Of a DNA stretch of 64,000 nucleotides, positions 12,298-60,765 are shown one piece after another. The notes beneath the pieces were generated by a model. It made no database searches. It was not told the origin of the DNA and worked only from the letters and a program-made list of their open reading frames with translations. Made by a program: the position numbers and the translations under genes. Location of the stretch: positions 161,165 through 225,164 of the forward strand of contig DATGIB010000001.1 of assembly GCA_035307485.1 (NCBI GenBank), given 5' to 3'. The stretch is from Candidatus Sulfotelmatobacter sp. GTDB taxonomy: Bacteria; Acidobacteriota; Terriglobia; Terriglobales; Acidobacteriaceae. Numbering within the stretch: the first letter of the stretch is position 1; each line of letters begins with the position of its first letter.

Positions 12298-12769
12298 TCA
12301 GGGAGCGGTTATATCACGAAAGTCCCTCCGGTAAAAGCCTGAGAACCCGCTAGTTACCGGTAGCAACTAGATTCCCCCCCGGTGTCGCAAGGGGAGGAAA
12401 GCCTGATAAATCTGCCTGCCGGCGGGGGTGTTTTAGTGGCTGGAGGTCGAAATGTCCCTGTGTGGCGGGACGTGTTTCACGTTGATATTCCGAGAAATTC
12501 TCGGTTCGTAAAGGTTCGTAACGGAAGAACGCAGGCGGAAGCAGCCTGCTGGAATTCCGAACTCACGGTAGAGCGAATTCGCCTCCAACCTCCCGGCAAG
12601 AGCATCCAAGGATTCACCGGGTGGTCTCTTGGGCACTCCCATACGCACAGATGAAATCTTGACGTGCGTTCTGAGTGTTCGGCGTAGGAGCGGCGCGTCG
12701 GTTTACGTGTTAGGTTGATGGAGAAATGCTCGTCCGACGGCTCAGCCGTCGTATGAAAGGTGCGTTCGC

Positions 12770-14299
12770 ATGAGACGTCAAATGAGCACGGTTCGGCATT
12801 TTTCCAATGTTGTCGCAATCTTCGCGTCGCTAATGATCGCGTTATCTGTCTCCCTTTGCGGCCAAACTCAACCATCGTCCTCGGCCAAACCGAGCACGTC
12901 GACAGCGGGAACGCAGACTGGAAATGCAGCCGCGCCGCAAAAGCCTCCCACGCCCACCCCGGAAGCGAACGCACCAGGCGTGCTCGTACAACTGAATACC
13001 GCGCTCGAAAGTCTTGCCCAGAAGGTGTCTCCGGCCGTGGTCCAGATCCTGGTGACGGGGTACGGCCAACTTCACGAGGAAGATCGCTCGCAGACGGCTT
13101 TGATCGTTCGCCAGCACGCAGTCGGGTCCGGGGTTATCGTCGATGCCTCCGGGTACGTCATAACCAACGCCCATGTGGTCGAAGGCGCGCAGAGGATTCA
13201 AATTGCCTTGCCTCTGTCCGGGGATTCGGGCGTGCAGGTCCCGGTCGGGAAGCGGCGGATTTTCGAGGCCAAGCTGGTGGGACAGCATAAAGAGACCGAT
13301 CTGGCACTGCTCAAGATTGACGAGGGCGGCCTTCCGACATTGTCCCTCGCCACACAGCAACGTCCACAGGTTGGGGAGTTGGTATTTGCCATCGGCAGCC
13401 CTGAAGGATTGCAGAACTCACTGACCATGGGCGTGGTGAGCGCGGTGGCGCGCCAGGCAAACCCGGATAAGCCCCTCACTTATATTCAAACGGACGCTCC
13501 AATCAATCCCGGCAACAGCGGAGGACCGCTGGTCGACATGAACGGGAATGTAATTGGTATCAACACGTTTATCCTCTCGCAAGGCGGGGGCAGCGAAGGA
13601 TTGGGTTTTGCGATCCCGGCGCGAGTCGTGGATTTCGTATATCGCAGCCTGCGCGCCCACGGACATGTGCATCGCGTGGAGATTGGAGCGGTGTCGCAGG
13701 AAATTACGCCGACTTTGGCGGACGCGCTGCACCTGGCGCGGCACTGGGGCGTGATCGTCGCCGACGTGAACCCGGAGGGTCCGGCGGCTGCCGCCGGCCT
13801 GCAAGTGCAGGACATCATCCTTAGCGCGGACGACCGGCGTATCGAGACACTGCCCTCTCTCTCGGCGGCGCTGTACCTGCATCGGATCGATCAGGTAGTG
13901 AAACTTGAAATCTTGCGTGGGACCGAACGCAAGACAATTTTCATTCCGGCGATTGAGCATCGCGACCACATGGATGAACTGCTTGACCAGATCGACTCGT
14001 CCAACAGCCTGGTTCCACGCCTGGGGATTCTGGCGATTGATTTAACGGACGATCTGCGTTCGCGGTTGGGAGCGCTACGAATTCCCTCGGGCGCTATCGT
14101 GGTTGGACGAGCGGCAGACTTGATTCTGCCGGATACTGGTCTGCAAGCCGGAGACATTGTGCACCAGCTGAATTCTCAGCCGATCGAATCGGTGAGCGCG
14201 TTGCGCACAGCAACGGCCGCTCTGAAGGCCGGCGATCCTGTAGCCTTGCAAGTCGAGCGGGACGGTGGATTGATGTATGTAAGCTTTGAAATCGAGTAA
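12770..14299 (+). CDS. HtrA/DegP-family periplasmic serine endoprotease with two PDZ domains
   Basis: Catalytic triad context NAHVV, DLALLK, GNSGGPLV. Two C-terminal PDZ-like repeats. Signal peptide present. Confidence 0.9.
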   Translation: MRRQMSTVRHFSNVVAIFASLMIALSVSLCGQTQPSSSAKPSTSTAGTQTGNAAAPQKPPTPTPEANAPGVLVQLNTALESLAQKVSPAVVQILVTGYGQLHEEDRSQTALIVRQHAVGSGVIVDASGYVITNAHVVEGAQRIQIALPLSGDSGVQVPVGKRRIFEAKLVGQHKETDLALLKIDEGGLPTLSLATQQRPQVGELVFAIGSPEGLQNSLTMGVVSAVARQANPDKPLTYIQTDAPINPGNSGGPLVDMNGNVIGINTFILSQGGGSEGLGFAIPARVVDFVYRSLRAHGHVHRVEIGAVSQEITPTLADALHLARHWGVIVADVNPEGPAAAAGLQVQDIILSADDRRIETLPSLSAALYLHRIDQVVKLEILRGTERKTIFIPAIEHRDHMDELLDQIDSSNSLVPRLGILAIDLTDDLRSRLGALRIPSGAIVVGRAADLILPDTGLQAGDIVHQLNSQPIESVSALRTATAALKAGDPVALQVERDGGLMYVSFEIE

Positions 14300-51798: not shown

Positions 51799-53199
51799 AT
51801 GAAGAGGATCGCCCTTTTGTTACCGACAATTGTTGGAACCTTTTGCGTACTGTTCTTCGCCGCGGTGTATCCGCCCCAAGCTGAGGCGGTTCCAAGCTAT
51901 GCGCGGCAGACGGGGTTGCCGTGCAGTGGCTGCCACTACACTCCTCCGGAATTGAATCCGGCGGGGCGCAGATTCAAACTGACTGGCTACGTCGATCGCG
52001 GAGACGACACCAAGACTGTAAAAGCTGACGACGGCAAGAAGCGCGCCGCCCTCGATCTGCTCGCGTCACTGCCCTTGTCCGTCATGGTGGAGACTTCCTT
52101 CACCTCGCTCAAGACTGCGCAGCCGCAAACCCAGAATGGCAATTTCGAGTTTCCTCAGGATTTTTCGTTGTTCCTTTCGGGCGCATGGACGAGCAAAGTG
52201 GGCAGTTTTCTGCAAGTGACGTACGACACCCAGGACGACCACTTCACCAGCGACAACACGGATATCCGGTTCGCGGACAAGACGAAGCTGGGGGGCAAGG
52301 AACTGGTTTACGGCATCGATCTTAATAACAATCCCACCGTGGAGGATCTTTGGAACAGCACTCCGGCTTGGGGCTACCCGTGGATTGCAAGCGACAACGC
52401 TCCTACCCCCAACGCTAGTCCTTTCATCAACGGTGGCTTGGCCCAGGACGTAGCGGGACTCGGCGTATTTGGGATGTGGAACAACCATCTCTACCTTGAC
52501 GCTGCCATCTATCGCTCAGAACACGTGGGCGGACCGCAGCCGAACCCCGGGGTGGGCGCGGGCTTCAATATCCGCGGCGTCGCTCCGTACTGGCGCCTGG
52601 CGTGGCAGGAGTTAACAGGAAAGACGCAGTATGAAATCGGAACCTATGGCATGCACCTGCGTTCGACCCCCAATGAAATCACCGATCCCACCGGAGCCAG
52701 CATTCCTACGGATTCGTACACGGACTGGGCAATCGACACCCAAATCGACCGCACCATCGTCAGAACGGACGTGCTTTCATTCCGGGCTACGTACATCCGG
52801 GAAAACAATGATCTGCTGAGCCTGCTGTTTCAGAACGGGCCATTGAGTCCGACTCCGCTGGTGTCGCAAGGTTCACACCATTTGAACACCGTCATGGCCA
52901 ATGCCGAATATCACATCGGCAACAAGTACACGGGAACGGCCGGCTGGTTCAATACGACCGGCACATCCGATCTCAACTTTTATCCCTCGGGGACGGCGGT
53001 GACCGGTAATTTCAATGGCGACCCGCACAGTACTGGATACATTCTGAACCTGTCCTACTGGCCGTGGCAGAACCTGCAACTCGCGGCGCAATACACCGGC
53101 TATACGCGCTTCAATGGCGCTGCGATGAACTACGACGGGTTAGGCCGCAATGCAAGCTCAAACAATACGTTCTATCTGGACGCCAGGATCTTTTTCTAA
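51799..53199 (+). CDS. Cyc2/Cyt572-like fused monohaem cytochrome c - outer-membrane beta-barrel (porin-cytochrome)
   Basis: Signal peptide MKRIALLLPTIVGTFCVLFFAAVYPPQAEA. A single CxxCH (YARQTGLPCSGCHYTPPELNP) within ~15 aa of the mature N-terminus. About 420 aa of alternating beta-strand-like sequence, ending FYLDARIFF (terminal Phe beta-signal). Confidence 0.6.
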   Translation: MKRIALLLPTIVGTFCVLFFAAVYPPQAEAVPSYARQTGLPCSGCHYTPPELNPAGRRFKLTGYVDRGDDTKTVKADDGKKRAALDLLASLPLSVMVETSFTSLKTAQPQTQNGNFEFPQDFSLFLSGAWTSKVGSFLQVTYDTQDDHFTSDNTDIRFADKTKLGGKELVYGIDLNNNPTVEDLWNSTPAWGYPWIASDNAPTPNASPFINGGLAQDVAGLGVFGMWNNHLYLDAAIYRSEHVGGPQPNPGVGAGFNIRGVAPYWRLAWQELTGKTQYEIGTYGMHLRSTPNEITDPTGASIPTDSYTDWAIDTQIDRTIVRTDVLSFRATYIRENNDLLSLLFQNGPLSPTPLVSQGSHHLNTVMANAEYHIGNKYTGTAGWFNTTGTSDLNFYPSGTAVTGNFNGDPHSTGYILNLSYWPWQNLQLAAQYTGYTRFNGAAMNYDGLGRNASSNNTFYLDARIFF

Positions 53200-53267: not shown

Positions 53268-53861
53268 ATGAAAAGCAAGTTCGCAACCAAGACATTCGCT
53301 GTCGTCGCGCTGATCGGTGGACTGTGCGCGGCGGCCTGGGCAGGTGATATCGAGGGCAGAGTCACTGGGATGAAAGGAAAGTCGGTTGTGTACGTTGACA
53401 CGATCGCGGGAAAGACATTCCCGGCACCCAAAGATCATCCGGTTATCGATCAGAAAGGATTGATGTTCAATCCGCACATTGTCGTCGTGCAACAAGGTAC
53501 GACAGTGGATTTCCTGAATAGCGACAACGTCGCCCACAACGTTTTCTGGACGGCGGTGGGCAGCGACAAAAAAGCTGGACACAATCTCGGCACGTGGCCG
53601 AAGGGCGAGAAGCGTTCCTTCACTTTCGATAAGCCAGGGGCAGTGCCACTACTCTGCAACGTTCATCCCGAAATGGCAGGCTACCTGATCGTCAGTCCGA
53701 CGCCATATTTCGCCGAAAGCGACGACAGCGGCAACTACAAGATCAAAGACGTCCCCGACGGCAGCTACTCCCTGGTGGTGTGGCATGAAGGCGCGAAGAG
53801 TCAGTCGAAGGCAATCACGGTTGCCGGCGGTGGCAAGGCTGATTTCACGCTAACAAAGTAA
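53268..53861 (+). CDS. periplasmic type-1 copper (cupredoxin) protein with amicyanin-like ligand spacing, embedded in a CarboxypepD_reg-like beta-sandwich
   Basis: Signal peptide. FNPHIVVVQQGTTVDFLNSDNVAHNV (His ligand) and LLCNVHPEM (C-x2-H-x2-M). The flanking GDIEGRVTG...VVYVD and DDSGNYKIKDVPDGSYSLVVWHEG resemble carboxypeptidase-regulatory-like strands. Confidence 0.7.
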   Translation: MKSKFATKTFAVVALIGGLCAAAWAGDIEGRVTGMKGKSVVYVDTIAGKTFPAPKDHPVIDQKGLMFNPHIVVVQQGTTVDFLNSDNVAHNVFWTAVGSDKKAGHNLGTWPKGEKRSFTFDKPGAVPLLCNVHPEMAGYLIVSPTPYFAESDDSGNYKIKDVPDGSYSLVVWHEGAKSQSKAITVAGGGKADFTLTK

Positions 53862-53971
53862 TCCCTGTTGCCGGGTAGCGGGCGAGGGAGCGGCACGCTT
53901 GGGGCGCCGCTCCCTGGTTCGTAAGGCGCTTTCCGAATGACGTTCAGAGGTACGGCTTTCAGGCAGCCACC

Positions 53972-55927
53972 ATGCTGAAGCGATTCAAAAACAAAAAGGT
54001 TGATGGGGATTGGCTACACACAAACTTTCCCTGCATGATGGCATGCCCGGCCCACACGAATGCCGGTCGCTACGTCGGCCTGATTGCCGAAGGACGTTTT
54101 GAAGAAGCCTACCGGCTGGCGCGCGATCCAAATCCTCTGGCCAGCATCTGCGGAAGAGTTTGTGCGCATCCTTGCGAGACCGCCTGCCGTCGTGGCGAAA
54201 TCGATAAGCCGATCTCGATCCGCGCCCTGAAGAGATTTCTCACCGAGCAATACGGCCCCGAATCGAAGCGACCGATCAACGTCAATGAAGGACGCGGCCA
54301 AAAGAAAATCCCTTTCAAGATCGCAGTGGTTGGAGGAGGTCCGGTTGGGCTTTCGGCAGCCCATGACTTGGCCTTAGCGGGCTATGCTGTCACGATTTTC
54401 GAAGCGGCGCCTGTTGCTGGCGGAATGTTGTACCTCGGAATTCCGGAATACAGACTGCCTCGTGATGTTGTCGAAGCACAGGTTCGCGAAATTCTCGAGA
54501 CGGGCGACATCACGCTAAAGCTGAATCACGCAGCCGGACGTGACTTCACAATATCCGAACTTCGGCAGCAGGGATTCGATGCCGTGCTCATCGCGGTAGG
54601 CGCCCACCGCAGCCGCGATCTCAGCATCCCCGGTGTCGATCTTGATGGTGTGCACAAGGGCATCGACTTCCTGCTTAACGTCAACCTTGGTTACAAGTTC
54701 ACGATCGGAAAGAAAGTGATCGTGATTGGTGGCGGAAACGTCGCCATGGACGTTGCCCGATCCGCGGCCCGTGAAGTCGTGCGCCAGCATGCCGGCGGCG
54801 TCGAGGACGTCGAACCCTCCGCTGAAAATGTCTCAGCGGTTGCGACCAAAGAGATGGTCGACATCTCGCTCTCCGCGCTGCGCATGGGCGCACGCGAAGT
54901 GAACCTCGTTTGCCTGGAGCGCCGCAACGAAATGCCAGCCGCTCTGGAGGAAATCGAGGAGGCCGAAGAAGAAGGCATCGTCATTCATCCCGGATTCGGA
55001 CCGAAGCGAGTCATCGGAAAGGACGGAAAGGTTACAGCTCTCGAAACGCTCAAAACGAAATGGGTTTTTGATGAGAATCGTCGCTTCAATCCGGCGTTCT
55101 ATGAGAACAGCGAGACCCAGATCGAGTGCGACACCATCATCATGGCGGTTGGCCAGGCGCCGCGCCTCGACTTCTTGACCCCCGAAGACAAAGTAGATAT
55201 TTCCCCTCGTGGACTGATTGCGGTCAATCCACAGACGCTAATGACCTCGGCGCCCGGCATCTTTGCCGGCGGCGACTGTGTGTTTGGGCCCCGCTTGATT
55301 ATCGATAGTGTTGGCGACGGCAAACGCGCAGCCGTAGGGATTGACGAGTACTTGCGCGGTGGCAAGCATCCGGAACCGGTCATCGAAGTCGAACTACTCG
55401 AACGACACTCCCTGCCACTCGGGTACCTCGATCTCAACCGTCAACCGGTTCCGATGCTGCCTCTTGAACGCCGCACCGGCGTGACGGAAGTGGAAGTTGG
55501 CTACGATGCCGCGTCGGCAATGGCCGAAGCGCAACGTTGCCTTCATTGCTGGGTCAACACCATCTTTGAGGGAACTCCGGAAGATGGCAGCTCGTGCATC
55601 CTCTGCGGTGGATGTGTGGATGTTTGTCCGGAGAAGTGCCTGGAACTCGTTTCGCTCGATCGCATCTCGTTTGAAACAGACACGATTCAGCACATCCGCG
55701 ACAACCAGGAATGCTTCGGCGTCGAGTTCGACGAAGTGAAACCGGACGAACTCGGGATGGTAACGGGTGCGGCTATGTTGAAAGATGAGACTCGGTGCAT
55801 TCGATGTGGTCTCTGCGCGATGCGCTGTCCGGTGAGCACCATCACGATGGAATCGTACAACCTTCTCCCTGCGGAGCCGACTGGTTTGATCTCGATCGCA
55901 GCGATCGGGGCAGGCTTGCAGAAGTAA
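53972..55927 (+). CDS. GltD-like NAD(P)H-dependent flavin/FeS oxidoreductase with C-terminal 2x[4Fe-4S] ferredoxin domain (cytoplasmic)
   Basis: N-terminal Cys clusters (CMMACPAHTN, CGRVCAHPCETACRRG). Two dinucleotide folds (VVGGGPVGLSAAHDLA, VIGGGNVAMDVARSA). C-terminal CILCGGCVDVCP and CIRCGLCAMRCP. No signal peptide or TM segment. Confidence 0.85.
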   Translation: MLKRFKNKKVDGDWLHTNFPCMMACPAHTNAGRYVGLIAEGRFEEAYRLARDPNPLASICGRVCAHPCETACRRGEIDKPISIRALKRFLTEQYGPESKRPINVNEGRGQKKIPFKIAVVGGGPVGLSAAHDLALAGYAVTIFEAAPVAGGMLYLGIPEYRLPRDVVEAQVREILETGDITLKLNHAAGRDFTISELRQQGFDAVLIAVGAHRSRDLSIPGVDLDGVHKGIDFLLNVNLGYKFTIGKKVIVIGGGNVAMDVARSAAREVVRQHAGGVEDVEPSAENVSAVATKEMVDISLSALRMGAREVNLVCLERRNEMPAALEEIEEAEEEGIVIHPGFGPKRVIGKDGKVTALETLKTKWVFDENRRFNPAFYENSETQIECDTIIMAVGQAPRLDFLTPEDKVDISPRGLIAVNPQTLMTSAPGIFAGGDCVFGPRLIIDSVGDGKRAAVGIDEYLRGGKHPEPVIEVELLERHSLPLGYLDLNRQPVPMLPLERRTGVTEVEVGYDAASAMAEAQRCLHCWVNTIFEGTPEDGSSCILCGGCVDVCPEKCLELVSLDRISFETDTIQHIRDNQECFGVEFDEVKPDELGMVTGAAMLKDETRCIRCGLCAMRCPVSTITMESYNLLPAEPTGLISIAAIGAGLQK

Positions 55928-55938
55928 TAAGAGAAACT

Positions 55939-56430
55939 ATGGCGGAAGAAAAAAAAGGTACTTTAAGCGACGAGTTAAATCGGCGGCAGTTTTTCACCAA
56001 ACTTGGTTTGGGGTCTTTGAGCATTGCTGCGGTTGGCACCGCGGCCTTCTCCTATCAGTATCTCGAGCCGAACGTATTGTATGAGCCTTCGCCAATCGTG
56101 AATGCGGGAAAGCCGGATCGCTATCCTCTCGACTCCGTCACTCTCGATCTCAACAACGGAATCTACATCATTCACTCTTCGGAAGGGTATTTCTCCCTAA
56201 GCGCAGTTTGTACTCACCTGGGCTGCTTGACGGCGTGGAAGCAGGAACTGGGCATCATCGCCTGTCCCTGCCACGGCAGCAAATTCGAGACGAGCGGGAA
56301 AAAGATCGAAGGACCGGCGCCCAAGCCGCTTCCGTGGAAGCGCGTCTGGATTAACGACGACGGTGATCTCCTCGTTGATCGTTCAACAGACGTTCCGGCT
56401 CTGGCACGCGATTCATTTGTGAGGGTCTGA
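55939..56430 (+). CDS. Rieske [2Fe-2S] subunit with Tat signal
   Basis: [19 protein letters not shown] Tat signal/anchor. CTHLGC and CPCHGS cluster-binding boxes. ATG 55939 lies 11 nt after the previous stop. Confidence 0.9.
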
Positions 56431-56431
56431 T

Positions 56432-57220
56432 ATGGCAAAAACTGTAGACCAATATTTCGATGACCTTCAGCAGACTCGGGTGTGGCGCTCAATCTTCCGC
56501 AGCGGCACCGGATCGAGCACCCTGAAGCGCGCGCTGGCCATTCAGCAGAACGTTTTCTTGCACCTGTTCTCGACCAAGGTCCGCGTACGCATGTTGAGCT
56601 TCAGCGCGACCTGGTATCTCGGCACTTTGACGCTCGGCACGTTTCTGATCCTCGTCACAACTGGAATTCCCCTGATGCTTTACTACCATCCTTCCGTGCC
56701 GCAGGCCTATGCGGATACCAAAGACCTGCAGTTTGTGGTCTCGTCCGGTATGTTCCTCCGCAATCTGCACCGCTGGTCCGCACACGCAATGGTCTTCCTG
56801 GTCTTCGCGCACATGTTCAAAGTCTTCTACCGTGGAGCCTACCGCACACCGCGTGAATTCAACTGGGTCATCGGGGTCGTTCTCCTTCTTATTACGCTGT
56901 TGCTCAGCTATACGGGATACCTGCTCCCGTGGGATCAGCTGGCGTATTGGGCGATCACGGTCGGATCGAACATCGCCTCCGCAGTTCCCCTCATCGGCGA
57001 CAAGATTCACTTCCTCCTCCTGGGTGGACACGCGGTAAACGCGAATGCTCTGCTTCGCTTCTACGTTCTGCACTGCATGATCCTGCCACTTACCGCGATG
57101 TTTTTCGTCGCAATTCACTTCTGGCGAATCCGCAAAGACGGCGGCCTCTATAACCACGACTGCGAGCCGGCAGCGGTTCGCTACAGGAATGGCGGCCCCG
57201 CCCCAAAGGAGACGAATTAG
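56432..57220 (+). CDS. cytochrome b, N-terminal (b6-like) subunit
   Basis: Four-helix core with haem His pairs ([20 protein letters not shown] and [23 protein letters not shown]). Starts 1 nt after the Rieske stop. Confidence 0.9.
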
Positions 57221-57222
57221 CC

Positions 57223-57930
57223 ATGGCTGACCCGAAAGATTTCATCGCTGGCGTCGATTCGAATGCGAAGAAGTCTCCCCGGCGCATCGTCTTTATCACG
57301 CGCCGCACGTCGGCCCATGTCAAAGCCGCCACGGAAGAGCAAATTCAGACGTTTCCCGAAGTGCTGTTCCGCGCTGCTGTCGCCGTTATGACTCTGGCGA
57401 TCGTACTCGTCTGGATCGCGCTTCTATTCAACGCGCCACTCGAAGGACTTGCGGATCCATCACACACTCCGAATCCCGCTAAGGCCCCGTGGTACTTCCT
57501 CGGATTGCAGGAGATGTTGCACTACTTCCCGCCGGTCGTGGCGGGTGTTCTCGTCCCGGGATTGGTAGTAATGGCGCTGATCGTCATTCCGTACTTCAAG
57601 GTGAATATCGAGGCTGAGGGACTGTTTCTGAGAGATCGCAAGCGGCGGCTGCGGATCTTCTACCTCTTCGCGAGCGGACTCTCGCTTTTCCTGTTGATCT
57701 TCAGGGTTTACGCGGCGCTGGGCCCAACCTTGATCATGGCTGGCCTCATGCTGTTTGCAGCGCAGAGTTCGCCACAGTCGACCTCGAGACCCCAGCGCTA
57801 CCTCGCAGCACGGCCTCTCTCTTACTGGGTGATGACCTGGTTCTTATTCGAGCTGGTGGTGCTCACCGCCATTGGCACTTTCTTCCGCGGACCGGGCTGG
57901 TCTTGGGTCTGGCCGTGGCAGGGTTCATAA
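57223..57930 (+). CDS. cytochrome b C-terminal / subunit-IV-like membrane subunit
   Basis: PNPAKAPWYFLGLQEMLHYFP (the PEWYFL-type motif of cyt b C-terminal / PetD) followed by TM helices. Starts 2 nt after the previous stop. Confidence 0.8.
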   Translation: MADPKDFIAGVDSNAKKSPRRIVFITRRTSAHVKAATEEQIQTFPEVLFRAAVAVMTLAIVLVWIALLFNAPLEGLADPSHTPNPAKAPWYFLGLQEMLHYFPPVVAGVLVPGLVVMALIVIPYFKVNIEAEGLFLRDRKRRLRIFYLFASGLSLFLLIFRVYAALGPTLIMAGLMLFAAQSSPQSTSRPQRYLAARPLSYWVMTWFLFELVVLTAIGTFFRGPGWSWVWPWQGS

Positions 57931-57946
57931 CGAGGATGCGGCGATC

Positions 57947-60034
57947 ATGAAAGAAAAACTTGCGTCGCTCTGGCAGAAGTTATTCGGAGACAGCGTTCGG
58001 GCCTTCGGCGTGGTCAGCGTGATTTTCTTGGTATCGACGGCCATTGCACCGGCCAAGAACTTCTTCAGCGAGTGGCGCGATTATCAGCGCGGTTACTTGA
58101 AAACGATTCGCAACCGCAGCGACGCCAACACCCTGCAGCGGCATTTTAGCGGCGGTATCCAGCAAGTCTGGCTGCCGGAACTCGGCGTGGTTGACCGCTG
58201 CACCAGCTGCCACGTGGGACTCAAAGAAGCCAGCCTGAGCGATATCCCCACGCAGCCGTATCGCAAGCACCCGGCAATTCCACACAATCTCGATCAATTT
58301 GGCTGCACCACGTGCCATCGTGGCCAAGGTGCAGCGACTACGGTCTCCGACGCGCATAGCAGTACGCTCGCCTGGGAGCAGCCGCTCCTACCCGCCAGGT
58401 ACATCGAGTCTTCCTGCGGGCAATGTCATCGCGGACAACTCCCCGGAACCCCTCAGCTCAATGAAGGACGGGCATTGCTGGCGCGGGAAGGCTGCCTGCA
58501 CTGCCATACGGTGAAGTTGCCCGATGGCAGCACGCTGAAGGCAACTGACGATCCTCCGTCCCTGTCGCACATCGCCGACAAAACGTCGCGCGAGTGGATC
58601 TTTGCCTGGCTCAAAGACCCGCAGGCCTACGCGTCGACCTCAACAATGCCGAATTTCAAGTTGAGCGACGATGATGCGCGCGACGTCTCCGCATTCCTGA
58701 TCGCCAATAGCACACCTCTTGCGGGAGACACAGCAACGGTTTCCGCCAAGTCGTCATCCGATCCCGCGGCTGGAGCGAGTTTGTATGGGGAGTCGTTCTG
58801 CGCCTCGTGTCACGCGGTTCAAAACGCTGCGGGCAACATGGTAGGCGGCGACGTGGGACCGGAGTTGACCCGTGTCGGAACCAAAGTAAAGCCAGAGTGG
58901 CTGCAGGCTTGGTTGCGGAATCCGCGAGTCTACCATCCGGAAACCGGCATGCCGCACTACCGGTTTAACGATGCTCAAATAGCAACGCTTGCGGGATTTC
59001 TTCAGAGCAAAGCCGACTCTGATTTTCTCGCCAGCGTTCACCTCGATGCGGCAACTCCTGAGCAGATCGCGCACGGCAAGCGTCTCGTCTCTGATTTTGG
59101 CTGCGCATCCTGCCATGAGATCGCAGGGATCAAGAAGCCCGAGAACTTCGCTCCCGAGCTAAGCCGCATCGGCAGCAAACCTGTCACGCAACTCATCTTC
59201 CTGCCCGGCATGCCGCAGACCTTGCCCGATTACATCGCGGGGAAGATCAAGAATCCGCGCGCATTCTCTCCGGGCCTGAAGATGCCGCAATACACCTTTG
59301 CGTCGCAGCAGATCGATGCACTCACCACTGCTTTACTATCACTGAATGAGCGTTCGTATTCGCTGCCACTATCCCTGCAAGTCCCGGGCAGGGTAGAAAC
59401 GGATTATCAGCCCGCCGGAAAAGCGGGAAAACTGATGACAGATCTGGCCTGTTTCAGTTGCCATCGCATCAACGGGCACGGCGGAGACATGGCGCCGGAC
59501 CTCACGTCGGAAGGCAGCTCAGTTCAGCGCGAATGGTTGGTGCAGTTTTTCAAAAACCCTGGGACGCTCCGTCCGGCTCTCATCCGTCGTATGCCTCGGT
59601 TCAATTTCACTGACAGCGAAGCCAACGAACTCACCGATTACATTATGACGGTTTATCAGAGCCCAAAAGTCGACCGCGACTCGATGCCGCTCGGAGGGTA
59701 CCCACAAGGACAGATCGAGCTCGGCAAACAGCTCTTCTACGGAAAATATTCGTGTCAGGGCTGCCATATCGTAGATACGAAAACCGACAAAGGCTACATC
59801 GGGCCGACATTGACACATGTCGGATCCCGGCTGACAGCAGCATGGATTTATCAGTGGATGAAGAATCCGCAATCCTTGCGTTCTGGAACCGCCGAGCCAA
59901 ATCGGTCCATGAGCGACGAAGATGCAGGTGCGCTCACCGCGTTTCTGATGTCGCAAAAAGGGGGAGAGAAATTCTCCGGCGGAGCAAAGGCCGCAAAAAC
60001 GGGCTTGCATATTCAGGAGGTCGCAAAACGATGA
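57947..60034 (+). CDS. membrane-anchored octahaem c-type cytochrome (3 closely spaced haems + 5 class-I-like cytochrome c modules)
   Basis: N-terminal TM helix (AFGVVSVIFLVSTAIAPA). Eight CxxCH motifs: CTSCH, CTTCH, CGQCH, CLHCH, CASCH, CASCH, CFSCH, CQGCH. The last five are each followed by GP.L...G...W...WL.NP...MP.F-type segments. Confidence 0.85.
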   Translation: MKEKLASLWQKLFGDSVRAFGVVSVIFLVSTAIAPAKNFFSEWRDYQRGYLKTIRNRSDANTLQRHFSGGIQQVWLPELGVVDRCTSCHVGLKEASLSDIPTQPYRKHPAIPHNLDQFGCTTCHRGQGAATTVSDAHSSTLAWEQPLLPARYIESSCGQCHRGQLPGTPQLNEGRALLAREGCLHCHTVKLPDGSTLKATDDPPSLSHIADKTSREWIFAWLKDPQAYASTSTMPNFKLSDDDARDVSAFLIANSTPLAGDTATVSAKSSSDPAAGASLYGESFCASCHAVQNAAGNMVGGDVGPELTRVGTKVKPEWLQAWLRNPRVYHPETGMPHYRFNDAQIATLAGFLQSKADSDFLASVHLDAATPEQIAHGKRLVSDFGCASCHEIAGIKKPENFAPELSRIGSKPVTQLIFLPGMPQTLPDYIAGKIKNPRAFSPGLKMPQYTFASQQIDALTTALLSLNERSYSLPLSLQVPGRVETDYQPAGKAGKLMTDLACFSCHRINGHGGDMAPDLTSEGSSVQREWLVQFFKNPGTLRPALIRRMPRFNFTDSEANELTDYIMTVYQSPKVDRDSMPLGGYPQGQIELGKQLFYGKYSCQGCHIVDTKTDKGYIGPTLTHVGSRLTAAWIYQWMKNPQSLRSGTAEPNRSMSDEDAGALTAFLMSQKGGEKFSGGAKAAKTGLHIQEVAKR

Positions 60035-60765
60035 GATTCTATATCGCCCTCCCTCTGGGATTTGTTCTGCTCGGAATTTCATGCTCACGCAAGGCGGCAC
60101 CGACACCTACCCTCAAACCGACGGGTGTGGGCGCAGCGATTGTGGAATCGAGCGGCGGAAAACAGCTCGCTCAAACCGGAGCTCCTCTCCTGCAGCCAGT
60201 GGTCGTACAGGTCAACGACGAGCGGGGAAGCGCAGTGGAACGCGCACTGGTTGAGTTCTCTGCGGCGCCGGGGGTGATTCTTGACCCGCCGAGTGCACTT
60301 ACTGACTCTAGCGGCCAGGCAACGACCAATGTTTCTCTCGGTGGAATGGCGGGACGGTATCAGATCACGGCGTCGACCTTCGACAAATCCCGCAAGAAGG
60401 TTGAACTCAAGCTGGAGGAAATCGCTCTCGGATATCAGCAAACGCTCGGCCGTCATCTGAACGATCAATACTGCGACCGCTGCCACAATTCCGAATCTAC
60501 AGCCCAACGTGTCTCGAACTATGACAACCTGGAAGTGAAGCCGCATCCGTTCAGTGAAGGCGAGACTCTGAATAAGATGACCGACGCCGATTTGACAGCC
60601 ATCATCACCAATGGCGGCCCTGCTCTGCAGAAATCCGCATTGATGCCAGCTTGGGGAAACACGCTCGGCAAGTCAGACATTCAGGCTTTGATCGCGTACA
60701 TCCGCGCTGTTTCCGATCCTGCCCCCAGAGATGCGGGGCCGCTTTATTCGCCGACGCCTCATTAG
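60031..60765 (+). CDS. lipoprotein with bacterial Ig-like (Big_1-type) domain and C-terminal monohaem cytochrome c
   Basis: Lipobox LLGISC. Big-like segment (PVVVQVNDERGSAVERALVEFSA...DSSGQATTNVSLG). CDRCH haem site and a distal Met in LMPAWG. ATGA overlap with the octahaem gene. Confidence 0.7.
   Translation: MRFYIALPLGFVLLGISCSRKAAPTPTLKPTGVGAAIVESSGGKQLAQTGAPLLQPVVVQVNDERGSAVERALVEFSAAPGVILDPPSALTDSSGQATTNVSLGGMAGRYQITASTFDKSRKKVELKLEEIALGYQQTLGRHLNDQYCDRCHNSESTAQRVSNYDNLEVKPHPFSEGETLNKMTDADLTAIITNGGPALQKSALMPAWGNTLGKSDIQALIAYIRAVSDPAPRDAGPLYSPTPH

Follow-up and report, generated by a model that had tools for sequence, protein, structure and literature searches.

Why should the gene of a cytoplasmic, NAD(P)(H)-binding flavoprotein be placed immediately before the genes of a Rieske/cytochrome b complex? 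The question is raised by a locus of Candidatus Sulfotelmatobacter, a soil acidobacterium represented by a MAG, contained in a window (the whole stretch of DNA analyzed) of 64,000 nt.

Organization of the Gene Cluster

The flavoprotein, Rieske, cytochrome b, subunit IV and octahaem cytochrome c genes follow each other in this order with gaps of 11, 1, 2, and 16 nt (Table 1). The flavoprotein stop codon (TAA, 55925-55927) is followed by an 11-nt spacer to the Rieske ATG (TAAGAGAAACT); the Rieske gene extends from ATG 55939 to TGA 56428-56430, that of cytochrome b from ATG 56432 to TAG 57218-57220, and that of the subunit IV-like protein from ATG 57223 to 57930. These coordinates agree with the spacing described in the first-pass annotation (11 nt between the flavoprotein and Rieske genes, 1-2 nt to the split cytochrome b genes). 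That annotation also proposed to look for a promoter and terminator between the first two genes; a scan of this intergenic sequence detected neither a promoter-like nor a terminator-like site, and none was found between the genes of the tightly spaced unit.

Table 1. Position of the cluster genes and of the spacer hairpin in the window, with the basis of each assignment.
Feature	Coordinates	Strand	Basis
Cyc2-type fused cytochrome-porin candidate	51799..53199	+	Signal peptide, CxxCH, Cyc2-like motif
Type-1 copper protein (cupredoxin), periplasmic	53268..53861	+	Pfam Copper-bind and CarboxypepD_reg
GC-rich hairpin, cupredoxin/flavoprotein spacer	53878..53922	+	10-bp stem
NfnB/GltD-type NAD(P)(H)-binding FAD protein, cytoplasmic	53972..55927	+	Pfam, NCBIfam, AF2 fold
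Rieske [2Fe-2S] protein, Tat signal and membrane anchor	55939..56430	+	Pfam Rieske, PDB sequence matches
Cytochrome b6-type four-helix cytochrome b	56432..57220	+	Alignment to spinach b6
Subunit IV-like protein, enlarged	57223..57930	+	Pfam Cytochrom_B_C, Qo motif APWY
Octahaem cytochrome c, membrane-anchored	57947..60034	+	8 CxxCH, Pfam, N-terminal hydrophobic helix
Big_1 domain and monohaem cytochrome c protein	60031..60765	+	Pfam Big_1, Cytochrome_CBB3

The flavoprotein gene, initially described as the first of the module, is unlikely to be the one that opens the operon. The cupredoxin gene ends 110 nt upstream, this spacer measures only 4-36 nt in 17 related loci, and a cupredoxin gene precedes the flavoprotein gene in 54 of 84 loci (median gap 72 nt), suggesting that the unit extends upstream to the cupredoxin. 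The hairpin in the spacer (GGGAGCGGC.../...GCCGCUCCC) lacks a U tract and was not called as a terminator by the scan, and the whole spacer folds no better than shuffled sequences (z = -0.86). The cupredoxin has a signal peptide, the ligand pattern H90...C131-x2-H134-x2-M137 and a CarboxypepD_reg-like C-terminal domain; its NCBIfam matches to amicyanin and plastocyanin are weak.

The Cyc2-type candidate comprises 466 aa from ATG 51799 (the mechanical ORF begins at TTG 51700). It carries a signal peptide and one CxxCH, and its sequence AVPSYARQTGLPCSGCHYTPPEL fits the Cyc2 consensus AXPXFAR[Q/K][T/Y]...CXXCH...PXL (Keffer 2021) except for a change of F to Y. No match was found in Pfam or NCBIfam, and its AF2 model contains 16 beta strands at low confidence (pLDDT 45). 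A same-strand ORF with the Cyc2 motif occurs at 55 of the 84 loci (null count 0), and such a gene was not found in the more distant loci or in Kuenenia.

Downstream, the octahaem cytochrome c begins with a multihaem region and continues with class-I cytochrome c domains (Pfam Cytochrom_C x5, CBB3, c7/c3; partial NCBIfam match to ExtS). The ATG of the Big_1/monohaem gene overlaps the octahaem stop codon (ATGA), and the closer clade keeps this gene 3' of the octahaem one.

Conservation of Gene Order Across Genomes

A test of synteny, also suggested at the outset, evidenced strong conservation of gene order: the flavoprotein gene is directly followed by a Rieske or cytochrome b gene in 80 of the 84 related loci (median gap 10.5 nt), with gaps of <=150 nt in 77 of these 80. 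The carriers span Acidobacteriota and about a dozen other phyla, including Terriglobia, Blastocatellia, Thermoanaerobaculia, Geothrix campi, Ignavibacteriales, Verrucomicrobia, Calditrichaceae, Chloroflexota, and Myxococcales. Linkage is kept in rearranged orders, as in Chloroflexota (flavoprotein-cytb-SUIV-Rieske) and Kuenenia (Rieske-flavoprotein-cytb). The subunit identities to the window proteins co-vary across loci (r about 0.97), as would also be expected from shared phylogeny alone.

The Flavoprotein

The 651-aa protein contains Fer4_20 (residues 19-93) and Pyr_redox_2 (115-449) domains and two C-terminal 4Fe-4S ferredoxin motifs (541-625), and neither a transmembrane segment nor a signal peptide was predicted, which corroborates the cytoplasmic GltD-like layout with an added 2x[4Fe-4S] ferredoxin domain recognized earlier. 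Of the two GxGxxG folds initially described, the dinucleotide-binding pair is present but the second motif reads GGGNVA (GxGxxA). Four Cys clusters are conserved: C25, C64, C68, and C72, C523 and C526, and, in the ferredoxin region, C542, C545, C548, and C552 as well as C609, C612, C615, and C619 are invariant in 24 homologs, while 90% or more of these also have C21 and C556.

The AF2 model (pLDDT 82) gave as best Foldseek matches the NfnB-like modules of Nfn-ABC, StnABC, and NfnI (E = 1e-36 to 3e-48; target-normalized TM about 0.77 for NfnB), and PDB sequence matches to the NfnB/Nfn-ABC/Stn-ABC/GltD group had E = 1e-91 to 1e-51. These proteins likewise combine an FAD and NADPH Rossmann pair with two [4Fe-4S] clusters. 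Unlike NfnB and GltD, the window protein carries the C-terminal ferredoxin domain, lacks an NfnA or GltB partner gene (no GltB, NfnA or FDH partner gene occurs anywhere in the 64-kb window), and belongs to a type that is always co-encoded with Rieske and cytochrome b. Among NCBIfam models, PRK12771 “NAD(P)-binding protein” matches it best, and its scores fall under the cut-offs for GltD families; in public annotations it appears as “glutamate synthase beta subunit-like,” “formate dehydrogenase beta subunit” or “FAD-dependent oxidoreductase.”

The Rieske/Cytochrome b Core

The Rieske start at ATG 55939 is backed by homolog lengths of about 160-170 aa and by the twin-arginine motif NRRQFF. The best PDB sequence matches of this protein, 9rk4 and 9rk3, are the two solved Kuenenia Rieske proteins, and the Ser of its box II (CPCHGSKF) is kept in 76/76 homologs.

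Cytochrome b aligns to spinach b6 over residues 61-237, preceded by an N-terminal extension of roughly 27 residues. The four His ligands (H113, H127, H214, and H229) are retained, and Tyr62 occupies the position of b6 Cys35, so that the haem cN cysteine is missing. His44 aligns with Kuenenia His43, is invariant in 25 aligned linked cytochrome b sequences and is kept in 79/79 scanned linked genes; it is absent from spinach b6, its specificity having been gauged against b6 and bc1 sequences of the PDB only. The subunit IV-like protein (235 aa, 4-5 hydrophobic segments) contains KAPWYFLGLQE, which aligns with the PEWY region of mitochondrial cytochrome b; the APWY motif is present in 74/75 loci. 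The strict conservation of the Qo motif and of the Rieske protein implies that Qo chemistry is needed.

Relationship to Known Complexes

In Kuenenia stuttgartiensis the R/b-3 (Kuste4569-4574) and R/b-2 (Kustd1480-1485) systems have been described (Kartal 2013; de Almeida 2016; Hauser 2025, PMC12954380). By sequence, the window module is homologous to the Kuste4569-74 complex, whose equivalent among our loci (L083) matches it subunit by subunit: identity is 35% over 634 aa for the flavoprotein, 49% for cytochrome b, 38% for Rieske, and 30% for subunit IV. The anammox systems share the subunit set of the window: besides a Tat-Rieske, a split b6-type cytochrome b and an enlarged subunit IV, they have a multihaem cytochrome c anchored in the membrane and, in the cytoplasm, an FAD protein that binds NAD(P) and contains four Cys clusters. 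The Kuenenia subunits, including the flavoprotein homolog, co-migrate, and the N-terminal His of its cytochrome b, shared with the window, has been proposed from an AlphaFold3 prediction to bind an additional haem b (PMC12954380). Like Kustd1480, the potential of which was measured at +335 mV (PMC12954380), the window Rieske protein has the box II Ser and a Phe at the Tyr position. Conversely, the haem cN Cys of Kuenenia (WCMGG) is replaced by Tyr62, gene order differs, and the hexahaem and HAO-like octahaem cytochromes of Kuenenia contrast with an octahaem with class-I domains. The window flavoprotein is 70 aa longer than its counterpart, with insertions at 270-305 and about 560-600 that are modeled at low confidence, and the Arg beside the first ferredoxin cluster (CGRC) is Gly. 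The upstream cupredoxin and Cyc2-type genes set the window apart from the anammox clusters, and its host, a peat-soil heterotroph, has no anammoxosome.

The first-pass annotation had cited the anammox complexes as the precedent; the homology is real, but the precedent is wider. Subfamily G (Dibrova 2013, 2017)/the APWY clade (Kao and Hunte 2014) shares the short cytochrome b, separate subunit IV, APWY Qo motif and broad, patchy taxonomic spread; large Fe-S proteins that bind NAD(P) were reported to co-occur with it, and a mid to high Rieske potential was predicted. In these papers a short cytochrome b correlates with a CxGG haem cN motif, whereas the window protein is short yet lacks this Cys, and the flavoprotein gene was placed within the operon “in some planctomycetes,” compared with about a dozen phyla here.

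The b6f complex of cyanobacteria and chloroplasts also has a split cytochrome b6/subunit IV core with four His (best PDB match, E = 7e-45). It differs in having the haem cN Cys, cytochrome f and PEWY in place of APWY, whereas the window subunit IV is enlarged and its cytochrome b N-terminally extended. The nearest NCBIfam models are those of Geobacter ExtOPQS (Cbc6-type; ext “selenite/tellurite reduction” cluster): cytochrome b is closest to ExtP (253 bits against a cut-off of 290), subunit IV to ExtQ, and the octahaem protein, in its N-terminal part, to ExtS. The scores remain under the equivalog cut-offs. The Geobacter cluster, like that of the window, adjoins outer-membrane electron-conduit genes. 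As for the cytoplasmic partner, FNR, an NADP-linked N-side flavoprotein, was reported to co-purify with b6f, according to the passage of PMC5600118 that cites Zhang 2001; this partner is a plant-type FNR, while the window flavoprotein is NfnB-type, contains Fe-S clusters and is operon-encoded.

Proposed Complex and Direction of Electron Flow

On balance, the products of the genes at 53972-60034 probably form a single membrane complex, of the kind proposed for anammox R/b-2 and R/b-3. Gene linkage and homology suggest that the flavoprotein associates with the Rieske/cytochrome b complex, which supports the link of the quinone pool or cytochrome b to pyridine nucleotides put forward in the first-pass annotation. 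The core would consist of a menaquinol-oxidizing Rieske protein, the four-helix cytochrome b and the enlarged subunit IV with its APWY Qo motif; the anchored octahaem cytochrome c would be the periplasmic-side outlet, and the NfnB/GltD-like protein would dock on the cytoplasmic face. As the flavoprotein is cytoplasmic, the Rieske protein Tat-exported and the octahaem protein N-terminally anchored, any redox link must pass via cytochrome b. Electrons may move from the low- to the high-potential haem b, then to an additional haem b that, by homology with the Kuenenia AF3 model, could be held by both His44 of the cytochrome b dimer, and from there through the two C-terminal ferredoxin-type [4Fe-4S] clusters and the two N-terminal clusters to FAD and NAD(P)+.

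The most likely working direction, though at somewhat less than even odds, is quinol-based bifurcation. One menaquinol electron would flow downhill via the high-potential Rieske center to the octahaem cytochrome and onward to the cupredoxin, a terminal oxidase or the outer-membrane Cyc2-type cytochrome, driving the second uphill via the b haems to reduce NAD(P)+. Terriglobia use menaquinone, and the invariant potential-raising Ser of Rieske box II, a signature as in Kustd1480, supports this direction, as does the need for Qo chemistry seen in the strict conservation of the Qo motif and Rieske protein. Against it, P-side to N-side transfer opposes the membrane potential, making NAD(P)+ reduction only marginally feasible, and Terriglobia, which are heterotrophs, are expected to have complex I, so that the need for a quinol to NAD(P)+ route is questionable. 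The missing Cys anchor of haem cN, which is part of the pathway drawn for Kuenenia, and the Gly that replaces the CGRC Arg also weigh against the proposed complex.

The same complex could run in reverse, with the flavoprotein as an input module through which electrons of NAD(P)H reach the b haems from the cytoplasm; the electron would complete N-side quinone reduction (Mitchell's external donor “d”) or, with Rieske-derived electrons, reduce the Qo quinone, yielding a membrane-anchored NAD(P)H dehydrogenase that supplies the quinone pool or periplasmic cytochromes. This reading is rather unlikely, with several points in its favor: Dibrova et al. see subfamily-G complexes as kin of b-haem-anchored dehydrogenases, NfnB and GltD modules normally accept electrons from NADPH, electron transfer from NAD(P)H to cytochrome c releases much free energy, the membrane potential helps N-side to P-side flow, and a heterotrophic host produces NAD(P)H. 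However, the anammox authors judged it wasteful beside proton-pumping NADH dehydrogenases, and it explains neither why the high-potential signature of Rieske should be invariant in an organism that uses menaquinone nor, if only N-side chemistry mattered, why the Rieske protein and Qo motif are strictly retained.

It is quite improbable that the flavoprotein is a soluble NADPH:ferredoxin-type (NfnB/GltD/SudA-like) or sulfide-dehydrogenase-type enzyme that just shares a transcript with an ordinary quinol:cytochrome c oxidoreductase. It folds like soluble enzymes, lacks a membrane segment and bears public annotations that point the same way, but the linkage persists in >10 phyla and through rearranged gene orders, no soluble partner gene lies nearby, its scores are below the GltD-family cut-offs, the N-terminal extension specific to this cytochrome b family contains an invariant His at the cytoplasmic face, and the Kuenenia homolog co-migrates with its complex. 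An “uphill” Fe(II)-oxidation pathway, in which the Cyc2-type porin-cytochrome and cupredoxin admit electrons and a reversed Rieske/cytochrome b reduces NAD(P)+, has very little likelihood despite the frequent linkage of both genes and a layout resembling Acidithiobacillus Cyc2-rusticyanin-CycA-bc1, because Rieske to b haem transfer is impossible without quinone chemistry and the electrons of Rieske and the low-potential haem b converge on the Qo quinone, so that by Q-cycle reasoning a reversed complex would consume NAD(P)H, besides which Cyc2 is missing from the distant loci and Kuenenia and iron oxidation is not established for Terriglobia.

Concluding Remarks

The gene module of the window is a variant of a kind that is already known, although biochemically unproven, since the co-occurrence of such flavoproteins with this cytochrome b subfamily was noted earlier (Kartal 2013; Dibrova 2013, 2017). 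Its layout has so far been studied in anammox bacteria; here it is found conserved across many phyla, often beside the gene of a Cyc2-type outer-membrane cytochrome.

Organization of the Gene Cluster

The first-pass annotation had described a 651-aa GltD-like gene followed, after a gap of 11 nt, by a Rieske gene and split cytochrome b genes, and this layout was accurate, both the ORFs and the Pfam matches being in agreement with it (see the table below). Downstream (3') of the flavoprotein gene, the Pfam domains Rieske, Cytochrome_B, Cytochrom_B_C and several cytochrome c domains were detected. The Rieske protein contains a twin-arginine motif, and the 695-aa cytochrome has the attributes of a membrane-anchored multihaem protein, with eight CxxCH motifs and one N-terminal helix. 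A promoter or terminator between the flavoprotein and Rieske genes, which would speak against their proposed coupling, was sought by means of a consensus scan, and no such sites were found there. Terminator-like matches located within coding regions (18 seen vs 11.8 expected) were taken as noise.

Features of the NAD(P)-linked Rieske/cytochrome b gene cluster, in window coordinates
Feature	Position	Strand	Remarks
Cyc2-type candidate ORF, 466 aa	51799-53199	+	signal peptide, single CXXCH
Cupredoxin with CarboxypepD_reg-like beta-sandwich domain	53268-53861	+	signal peptide, His/Cys/His/Met type-1 copper pattern
GC-rich hairpin, 10-bp stem	53878-53922	+	in cupredoxin-flavoprotein spacer; U tract absent; fold energy ordinary (z = -0.86)
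GltD-like flavoprotein, 651 aa	53972-55927	+	stop TAA; 11 nt to next gene
Rieske protein, 163 aa	55939-56430	+	1 nt to next gene
b6-type cytochrome b, 262 aa	56432-57220	+	2 nt to next gene
Subunit IV-like protein, 235 aa	57223-57930	+	16 nt to next gene
c-type cytochrome (octahaem), 695 aa	57947-60034	+	ATGA overlap with next gene
Big_1 + cytochrome c protein	60031-60765	+	last of the listed run

Conservation of the Module

One genome per GTDB species was scanned with an alignment of eight flavoprotein sequences, yielding 80 loci (42-95% identity); the set was widened with two loci retrieved by exact-protein look-up and one Kuenenia locus, and counts are given over 84 loci. Neighbour genes were located by extracting ORFs and by running tblastn with the proteins of the window. 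In 80/84 loci a Rieske or cytochrome b gene comes immediately after that of the flavoprotein, with a gap of at most 150 nt in 77 and a median of 10.5 nt, so that the adjacency seen in the single sequence is conserved among relatives. As for the four exceptions, three stop at a contig edge and the fourth has just 1.1 kb of downstream DNA.

On the Acidobacteriota side the loci belong to Terriglobia, Bryobacterales, Blastocatellia, Thermoanaerobaculia and Geothrix campi strain SG10; the others were found in Ignavibacteriales, Eisenbacteria, Zixibacteria, Binatota, Verrucomicrobia, Calditrichaceae, Bacteroidota, Kryptoniota, Myxococcales, Chloroflexota and an actinomycete MAG, a few of these taxon assignments being possibly affected by MAG binning errors. 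Measured against the window, the identities of the four partner proteins rise and fall together with the flavoprotein identity (r about 0.97), which is compatible with inheritance as a unit, a pattern that phylogeny alone would equally give.

The order of the genes varies while the genes stay together, the Kuenenia arrangement being Rieske-flavoprotein-cytochrome b. In two Chloroflexota loci and the actinomycete locus (L055, L079 and L081) the flavoprotein gene is directly followed by that of cytochrome b; the order in L055 and L081 is flavoprotein, cytochrome b, subunit IV and Rieske, and in L079, where the contig stops ~0.9 kb past the flavoprotein gene, Rieske and subunit IV were not found. 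In an Ignavibacteriales locus (L045, about 12348-14153) gaps of ~400 nt (Rieske/cytochrome b) and ~680 nt (cytochrome b/subunit IV) occur where 1-4 nt are seen elsewhere, which could represent inserted ORFs or assembly problems.

Two core architectures can be distinguished, one with cytochrome b split from subunit IV (the window clade, Geothrix and Kuenenia) and the other with a fused cytochrome b of 420-460 aa. The fused form is present in L052-L054, L056, L058-L065, L068, L069, L073-L078 and L080, in some cases with 7 residues inserted past helix B, and with the N-terminal His retained. Loci L060, L063, L068, L074-L076 and L078, from Acidobacteriaceae and Terracidiphilus MAGs, constitute a second, divergent module clade (46-47% identity) with fused cytochrome b, a Cyc2-motif gene upstream and no cupredoxin gene; therefore, some Terriglobia may carry two paralogous NAD(P)-linked complexes.

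Identity of the Flavoprotein

The flavoprotein is identical to HLV85506.1, annotated as "FAD-dependent oxidoreductase" of a Candidatus Sulfotelmatobacter sp. MAG (Acidobacteriota, Terriglobia); the 90% identity cluster of this protein comprises 1,485 member sequences. Pfam assigns Fer4_20 (residues 19-93), Pyr_redox_2 (115-449) and two ferredoxin-type 4Fe-4S motifs (541-625), and no hydrophobic (membrane) segment was detected in the protein. The two GxGxxG folds attributed to it by the first-pass annotation need a partial correction, as the first stands and the second dinucleotide-binding motif reads GxGxxA. Across 24 homologues (38-57% identity) the residues C25, C64, C68 and C72, the pair C523 and C526, and the groups C542, C545, C548, C552 and C609, C612, C615, C619 are all kept, the share for C21 and C556 being at least 90%, a set sufficient for four clusters, like in the anammox models. 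Encoded in the same cluster as the Rieske and cytochrome b subunits, predicted on the cytoplasmic side and equipped with several Fe-S Cys clusters, the protein has the traits of a flavoprotein of the anammox R/b type.

The AF2 model of the flavoprotein is good (pLDDT 82, pTM 0.81). The top Foldseek matches were NfnB-like modules, namely those of the electron-bifurcating complexes Nfn-ABC (9bov), StnABC (8oh5) and NfnABC (9n5u), followed by NfnB (5jca), GltD and dihydropyrimidine dehydrogenase, and the PDB sequence search returned the same order; an NfnB fold is evidenced by target-normalised TM values of 0.77-0.78 to 5jca and 5jfc. The nearest NCBIfam model is PRK12771 ("NAD(P)-binding protein"), and the GltD models score below their cut-offs (gltD_gamma_fam, 241 bits vs 483; GOGAT_sm_gam, 210 vs 448). 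The 64-kb window contains no gene for GltB, NfnA or the catalytic subunit of formate dehydrogenase; the protein shares its fold with NfnB but an NfnA-like gene is absent from both the cluster and the window. GltD, NfnB and FDH-beta were ruled out as its true identity because the partner genes are absent, the scores fall under the cut-offs and the linkage to cytochrome b is invariant. Close relatives bear public names such as "glutamate synthase beta subunit-like oxidoreductase" and "formate dehydrogenase (NADP+) beta subunit", which, given the invariant Rieske/cytochrome b context, are probably misleading, and present annotations conceal that context.

Residues 635-651 (55880-55927) form a hydrophobic C-terminal tail, TGLISIAAIGAGLQK, predicted to be helical with low confidence and conserved in close relatives only; this tail could act as a membrane or cytochrome b contact.

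Comparison with Anammox and Cytochrome b6f Complexes

NAD(P)-linked Rieske/cytochrome b systems are already known as a kind, biochemically unproven and still hypothetical. Genes for NAD(P)-binding Fe-S proteins are reported inside bc operons in some planctomycetes (Dibrova et al., PMC5600118). An "APWY clade" of cytochrome b, no member of which had been characterised then, has been defined, with mid- to high-potential Rieske partners predicted for it (Kao and Hunte, 2014, PMC4122944). The cytochrome b of the window is placed in this APWY clade (subfamily G) solely on its motif and on the gene context published for such proteins.

In a sequence search of the PDB, the Rieske protein of the window matched 9rk4 (E = 5e-23) and 9rk3 (8e-19) best, ahead of every b6f Rieske, and both are Kuenenia Rieske proteins (Hauser et al., 2025, PMC12954380). 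The Kuenenia sp. locus L083, retrieved with the 9rk4 sequence, encodes a Rieske protein (172 aa), an NAD(P) oxidoreductase (581 aa), cytochrome b (256 aa) and subunit IV (240 aa) as well as a hexahaem protein (363 aa) and an HAO-like protein (584 aa), the layout of Kuste4569-74. Identity between the window and L083 proteins amounts to 35% over 634 aa for the flavoprotein, 49% for cytochrome b, 38% for Rieske and 30% for subunit IV. The anammox R/b subunits co-migrate, co-migration being known for Kuenenia only; their Rieske potentials are +303 and +335 mV, and their subunit IV has five helices (PMC12954380). In the window, subunit IV has 235 aa vs about 160 in b6f, and a crude hydropathy scan gave four clear segments in it and five in the Kuenenia protein.

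By alignment, the haem ligands of cytochrome b are kept, H113, H127, H214 and H229 corresponding to b6 H86, H100, H187 and H202. In the anammox complexes, AlphaFold3 places an additional haem b between two cytochrome b monomers, with His43 (Kuste4571) or His62 (Kustd1481) as ligand, en route to four Fe-S clusters and FAD (PMC12954380). His44 of the window protein (NVFLHLF) aligns with Kuenenia His43 (NVWLHLH), the proposed inter-monomer haem b ligand, and an equivalent residue is present in 79/79 linked cytochromes b, within an N-terminal extension missing from spinach b6. At the haem cN position, Tyr62 is found in the window where b6 has Cys35, and, among the 76 loci with this position read, the CxGG Cys occurs in Kuenenia only; to judge from these alignments, haem cN would be dispensable for the NAD(P)-linked Rieske/cytochrome b family. 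The Qo motif is APWY in 74/75 loci; L055 has AAWY. Box II of the Rieske protein reads CPCHGS in 76/76, and the next Tyr position is Phe in 69 of them, like in Kustd1480.

The window differs from the anammox R/b complexes in lacking the haem cN Cys present in Kuenenia, in its periplasmic cytochrome, which is an octahaem protein with class-I domains, the HAO-like protein being absent, and in the two low-confidence insertions and hydrophobic C-terminal tail of its flavoprotein. Compared with canonical cytochrome b6f, it has APWY instead of PEWY, no Cys35 equivalent and an octahaem cytochrome c in place of cytochrome f. The Arg located by the first ferredoxin cluster in Kuenenia (L083 residue 511, CGRC) is Gly in the window and in most homologues and is therefore no family feature. 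The closest NCBIfam models for the membrane and periplasmic components are Geobacter ExtP (cytochrome b) and ExtQ (subunit IV), covering 56432-57930, and ExtS (part of the octahaem protein, 57947-58990), from the "selenite/tellurite reduction" ext operon, with scores just under the cut-offs. In Geobacter, too, these ext genes lie next to those of an outer-membrane conduit.

Cupredoxin and Cyc2-Type Genes Upstream

The flavoprotein gene had been taken as the first gene of the Rieske/cytochrome b module, which is probably wrong: a cupredoxin gene lies directly upstream of it in 54 loci, and the spacer between them, 110 nt long in the window, measures only 4-36 nt in 17 related loci, so that the flavoprotein gene is probably an internal one. 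The hairpin found in the window spacer was rejected as a terminator on account of its unremarkable folding energy and missing U tract, and may have a role in processing or stability.

Still further upstream, an ORF without Pfam or NCBIfam matches opens with a signal peptide, after which comes AVPSYARQTGLPCSGCHYTPPEL. Members of the Cyc2 family of iron oxidases are characterised by a signal peptide, a single CXXCH and a 16-strand porin, with CXXCH preceded by the motif AXPXFAR[Q/K][T/Y] and followed, some 4 residues on, by PXL (Keffer et al., 2021, PMC8406198). The window ORF is a candidate for this family: it has the signal peptide, the single CXXCH and a length above the minimum of 365 aa, and its sequence AVPSYARQT...CSGCHYTPPEL fits the motifs save for F replaced by Y. 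Its AF2 model displays about 16 beta strands, but the mean pLDDT is just 45, too poor for a fold search. A motif scan of all loci detected a same-strand Cyc2-motif ORF of about 400-625 aa in 55/84, located either immediately before the cupredoxin gene or shortly past the last cytochrome gene, and gave no match in reversed or shuffled translations. The exact FAR[K/Q]Y form is present in Geothrix, Eisenbacteria, Thermoanaerobaculia, Myxococcales and the second Acidobacteriaceae clade, and the variant FSRQY in many Terriglobia.

Possible Electron Flow

The first-pass annotation proposed a physical complex linking the quinone pool or cytochrome b to pyridine nucleotides, an interpretation that is supported to the extent that sequence analysis allows. 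Given the predicted topology, with the flavoprotein in the cytoplasm and the Rieske and cytochrome c proteins on the periplasmic side, only the b haems could join the two in a redox sense; therefore, a single complex is the best explanation and a reasonably probable one. In such a complex electrons would travel between NAD(P)(H), FAD, four Fe-S clusters, possibly the His44-ligated haem b, and the two b haems.

Regarding the direction of flow, the lineage of the window uses menaquinone, and the evidence leans somewhat to quinol bifurcation because the sequence signature of a high-potential (above +300 mV) Rieske centre, with the box II Ser, is invariant in this menaquinone lineage and the Qo elements are strictly conserved. 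According to the Kartal/Hauser scheme, one electron of the quinol would reach a high-potential acceptor and the other would reduce NAD(P)+. The opposite direction, with NAD(P)H as electron donor, would be thermodynamically easy and, set beside the conserved Rieske and Qo features, is given a smaller, though appreciable, chance. A plain reversal, that is an "uphill" route from iron oxidation to NAD(P)+, is unlikely because the Rieske electron and the b-haem electron would both converge on quinone at the Qo site.

The linkage with Cyc2-type and cupredoxin genes points to contact of the high-potential branch with iron or humics outside the cell, or with an oxidase. A more far-reaching reading, which as a whole we consider rather unlikely, is that the nine-gene unit represents a complete envelope-spanning redox pathway with bifurcated menaquinol oxidation, its named products being the Cyc2-type porin-cytochrome, cupredoxin, NAD(P)-flavoprotein, Rieske, cytochrome b, subunit IV, octahaem cytochrome c and Big_1 cytochrome c. 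If this whole scheme held, the high-potential electron would pass through the octahaem protein, cupredoxin and Cyc2 to extracellular Fe(III)/humics, or through an oxidase to O2, and the low-potential electron would cross a fifth b haem between the two cytochromes b and yield NAD(P)H at the membrane.

Implications

The reduction of NAD(P)+ by quinol-based bifurcation in complexes of this type is so far a proposal, debated almost exclusively with regard to anammox bacteria, organisms that, to our knowledge, are not available in pure culture. In the available literature no account was found of operon-level conservation over about a dozen phyla, of the invariance of the His residue, of haem cN being generally missing from non-anammox members, or of the Cyc2/cupredoxin upstream context and its connection between iron and NAD(P)(H); studies on Caldithrix, Nitrospina, Cyc2 phylogeny, Antarctic iron and extracellular electron transfer in cable bacteria contain nothing on the module outside anammox.

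The module, together with the His proposed to ligate an additional haem b, is abundant among Acidobacteriota of soil and peat, and at least one isolate, Geothrix campi SG10 (L047), carries it, which provides culturable organisms for testing the bifurcation hypothesis. The value of the locus thus resides in that a known kind of system is widespread, present in culturable bacteria and placed in a new context of Cyc2 and cupredoxin genes. The linkage of cupredoxin and Cyc2-type genes in over half of the loci suggests that extracellular iron redox chemistry is connected with the cellular NAD(P)(H) pool; if the envelope-spanning reading is true, soil Acidobacteriota would commonly possess an NAD(P)+ reductase that bifurcates electrons from quinol and is coupled to iron chemistry outside the cell.
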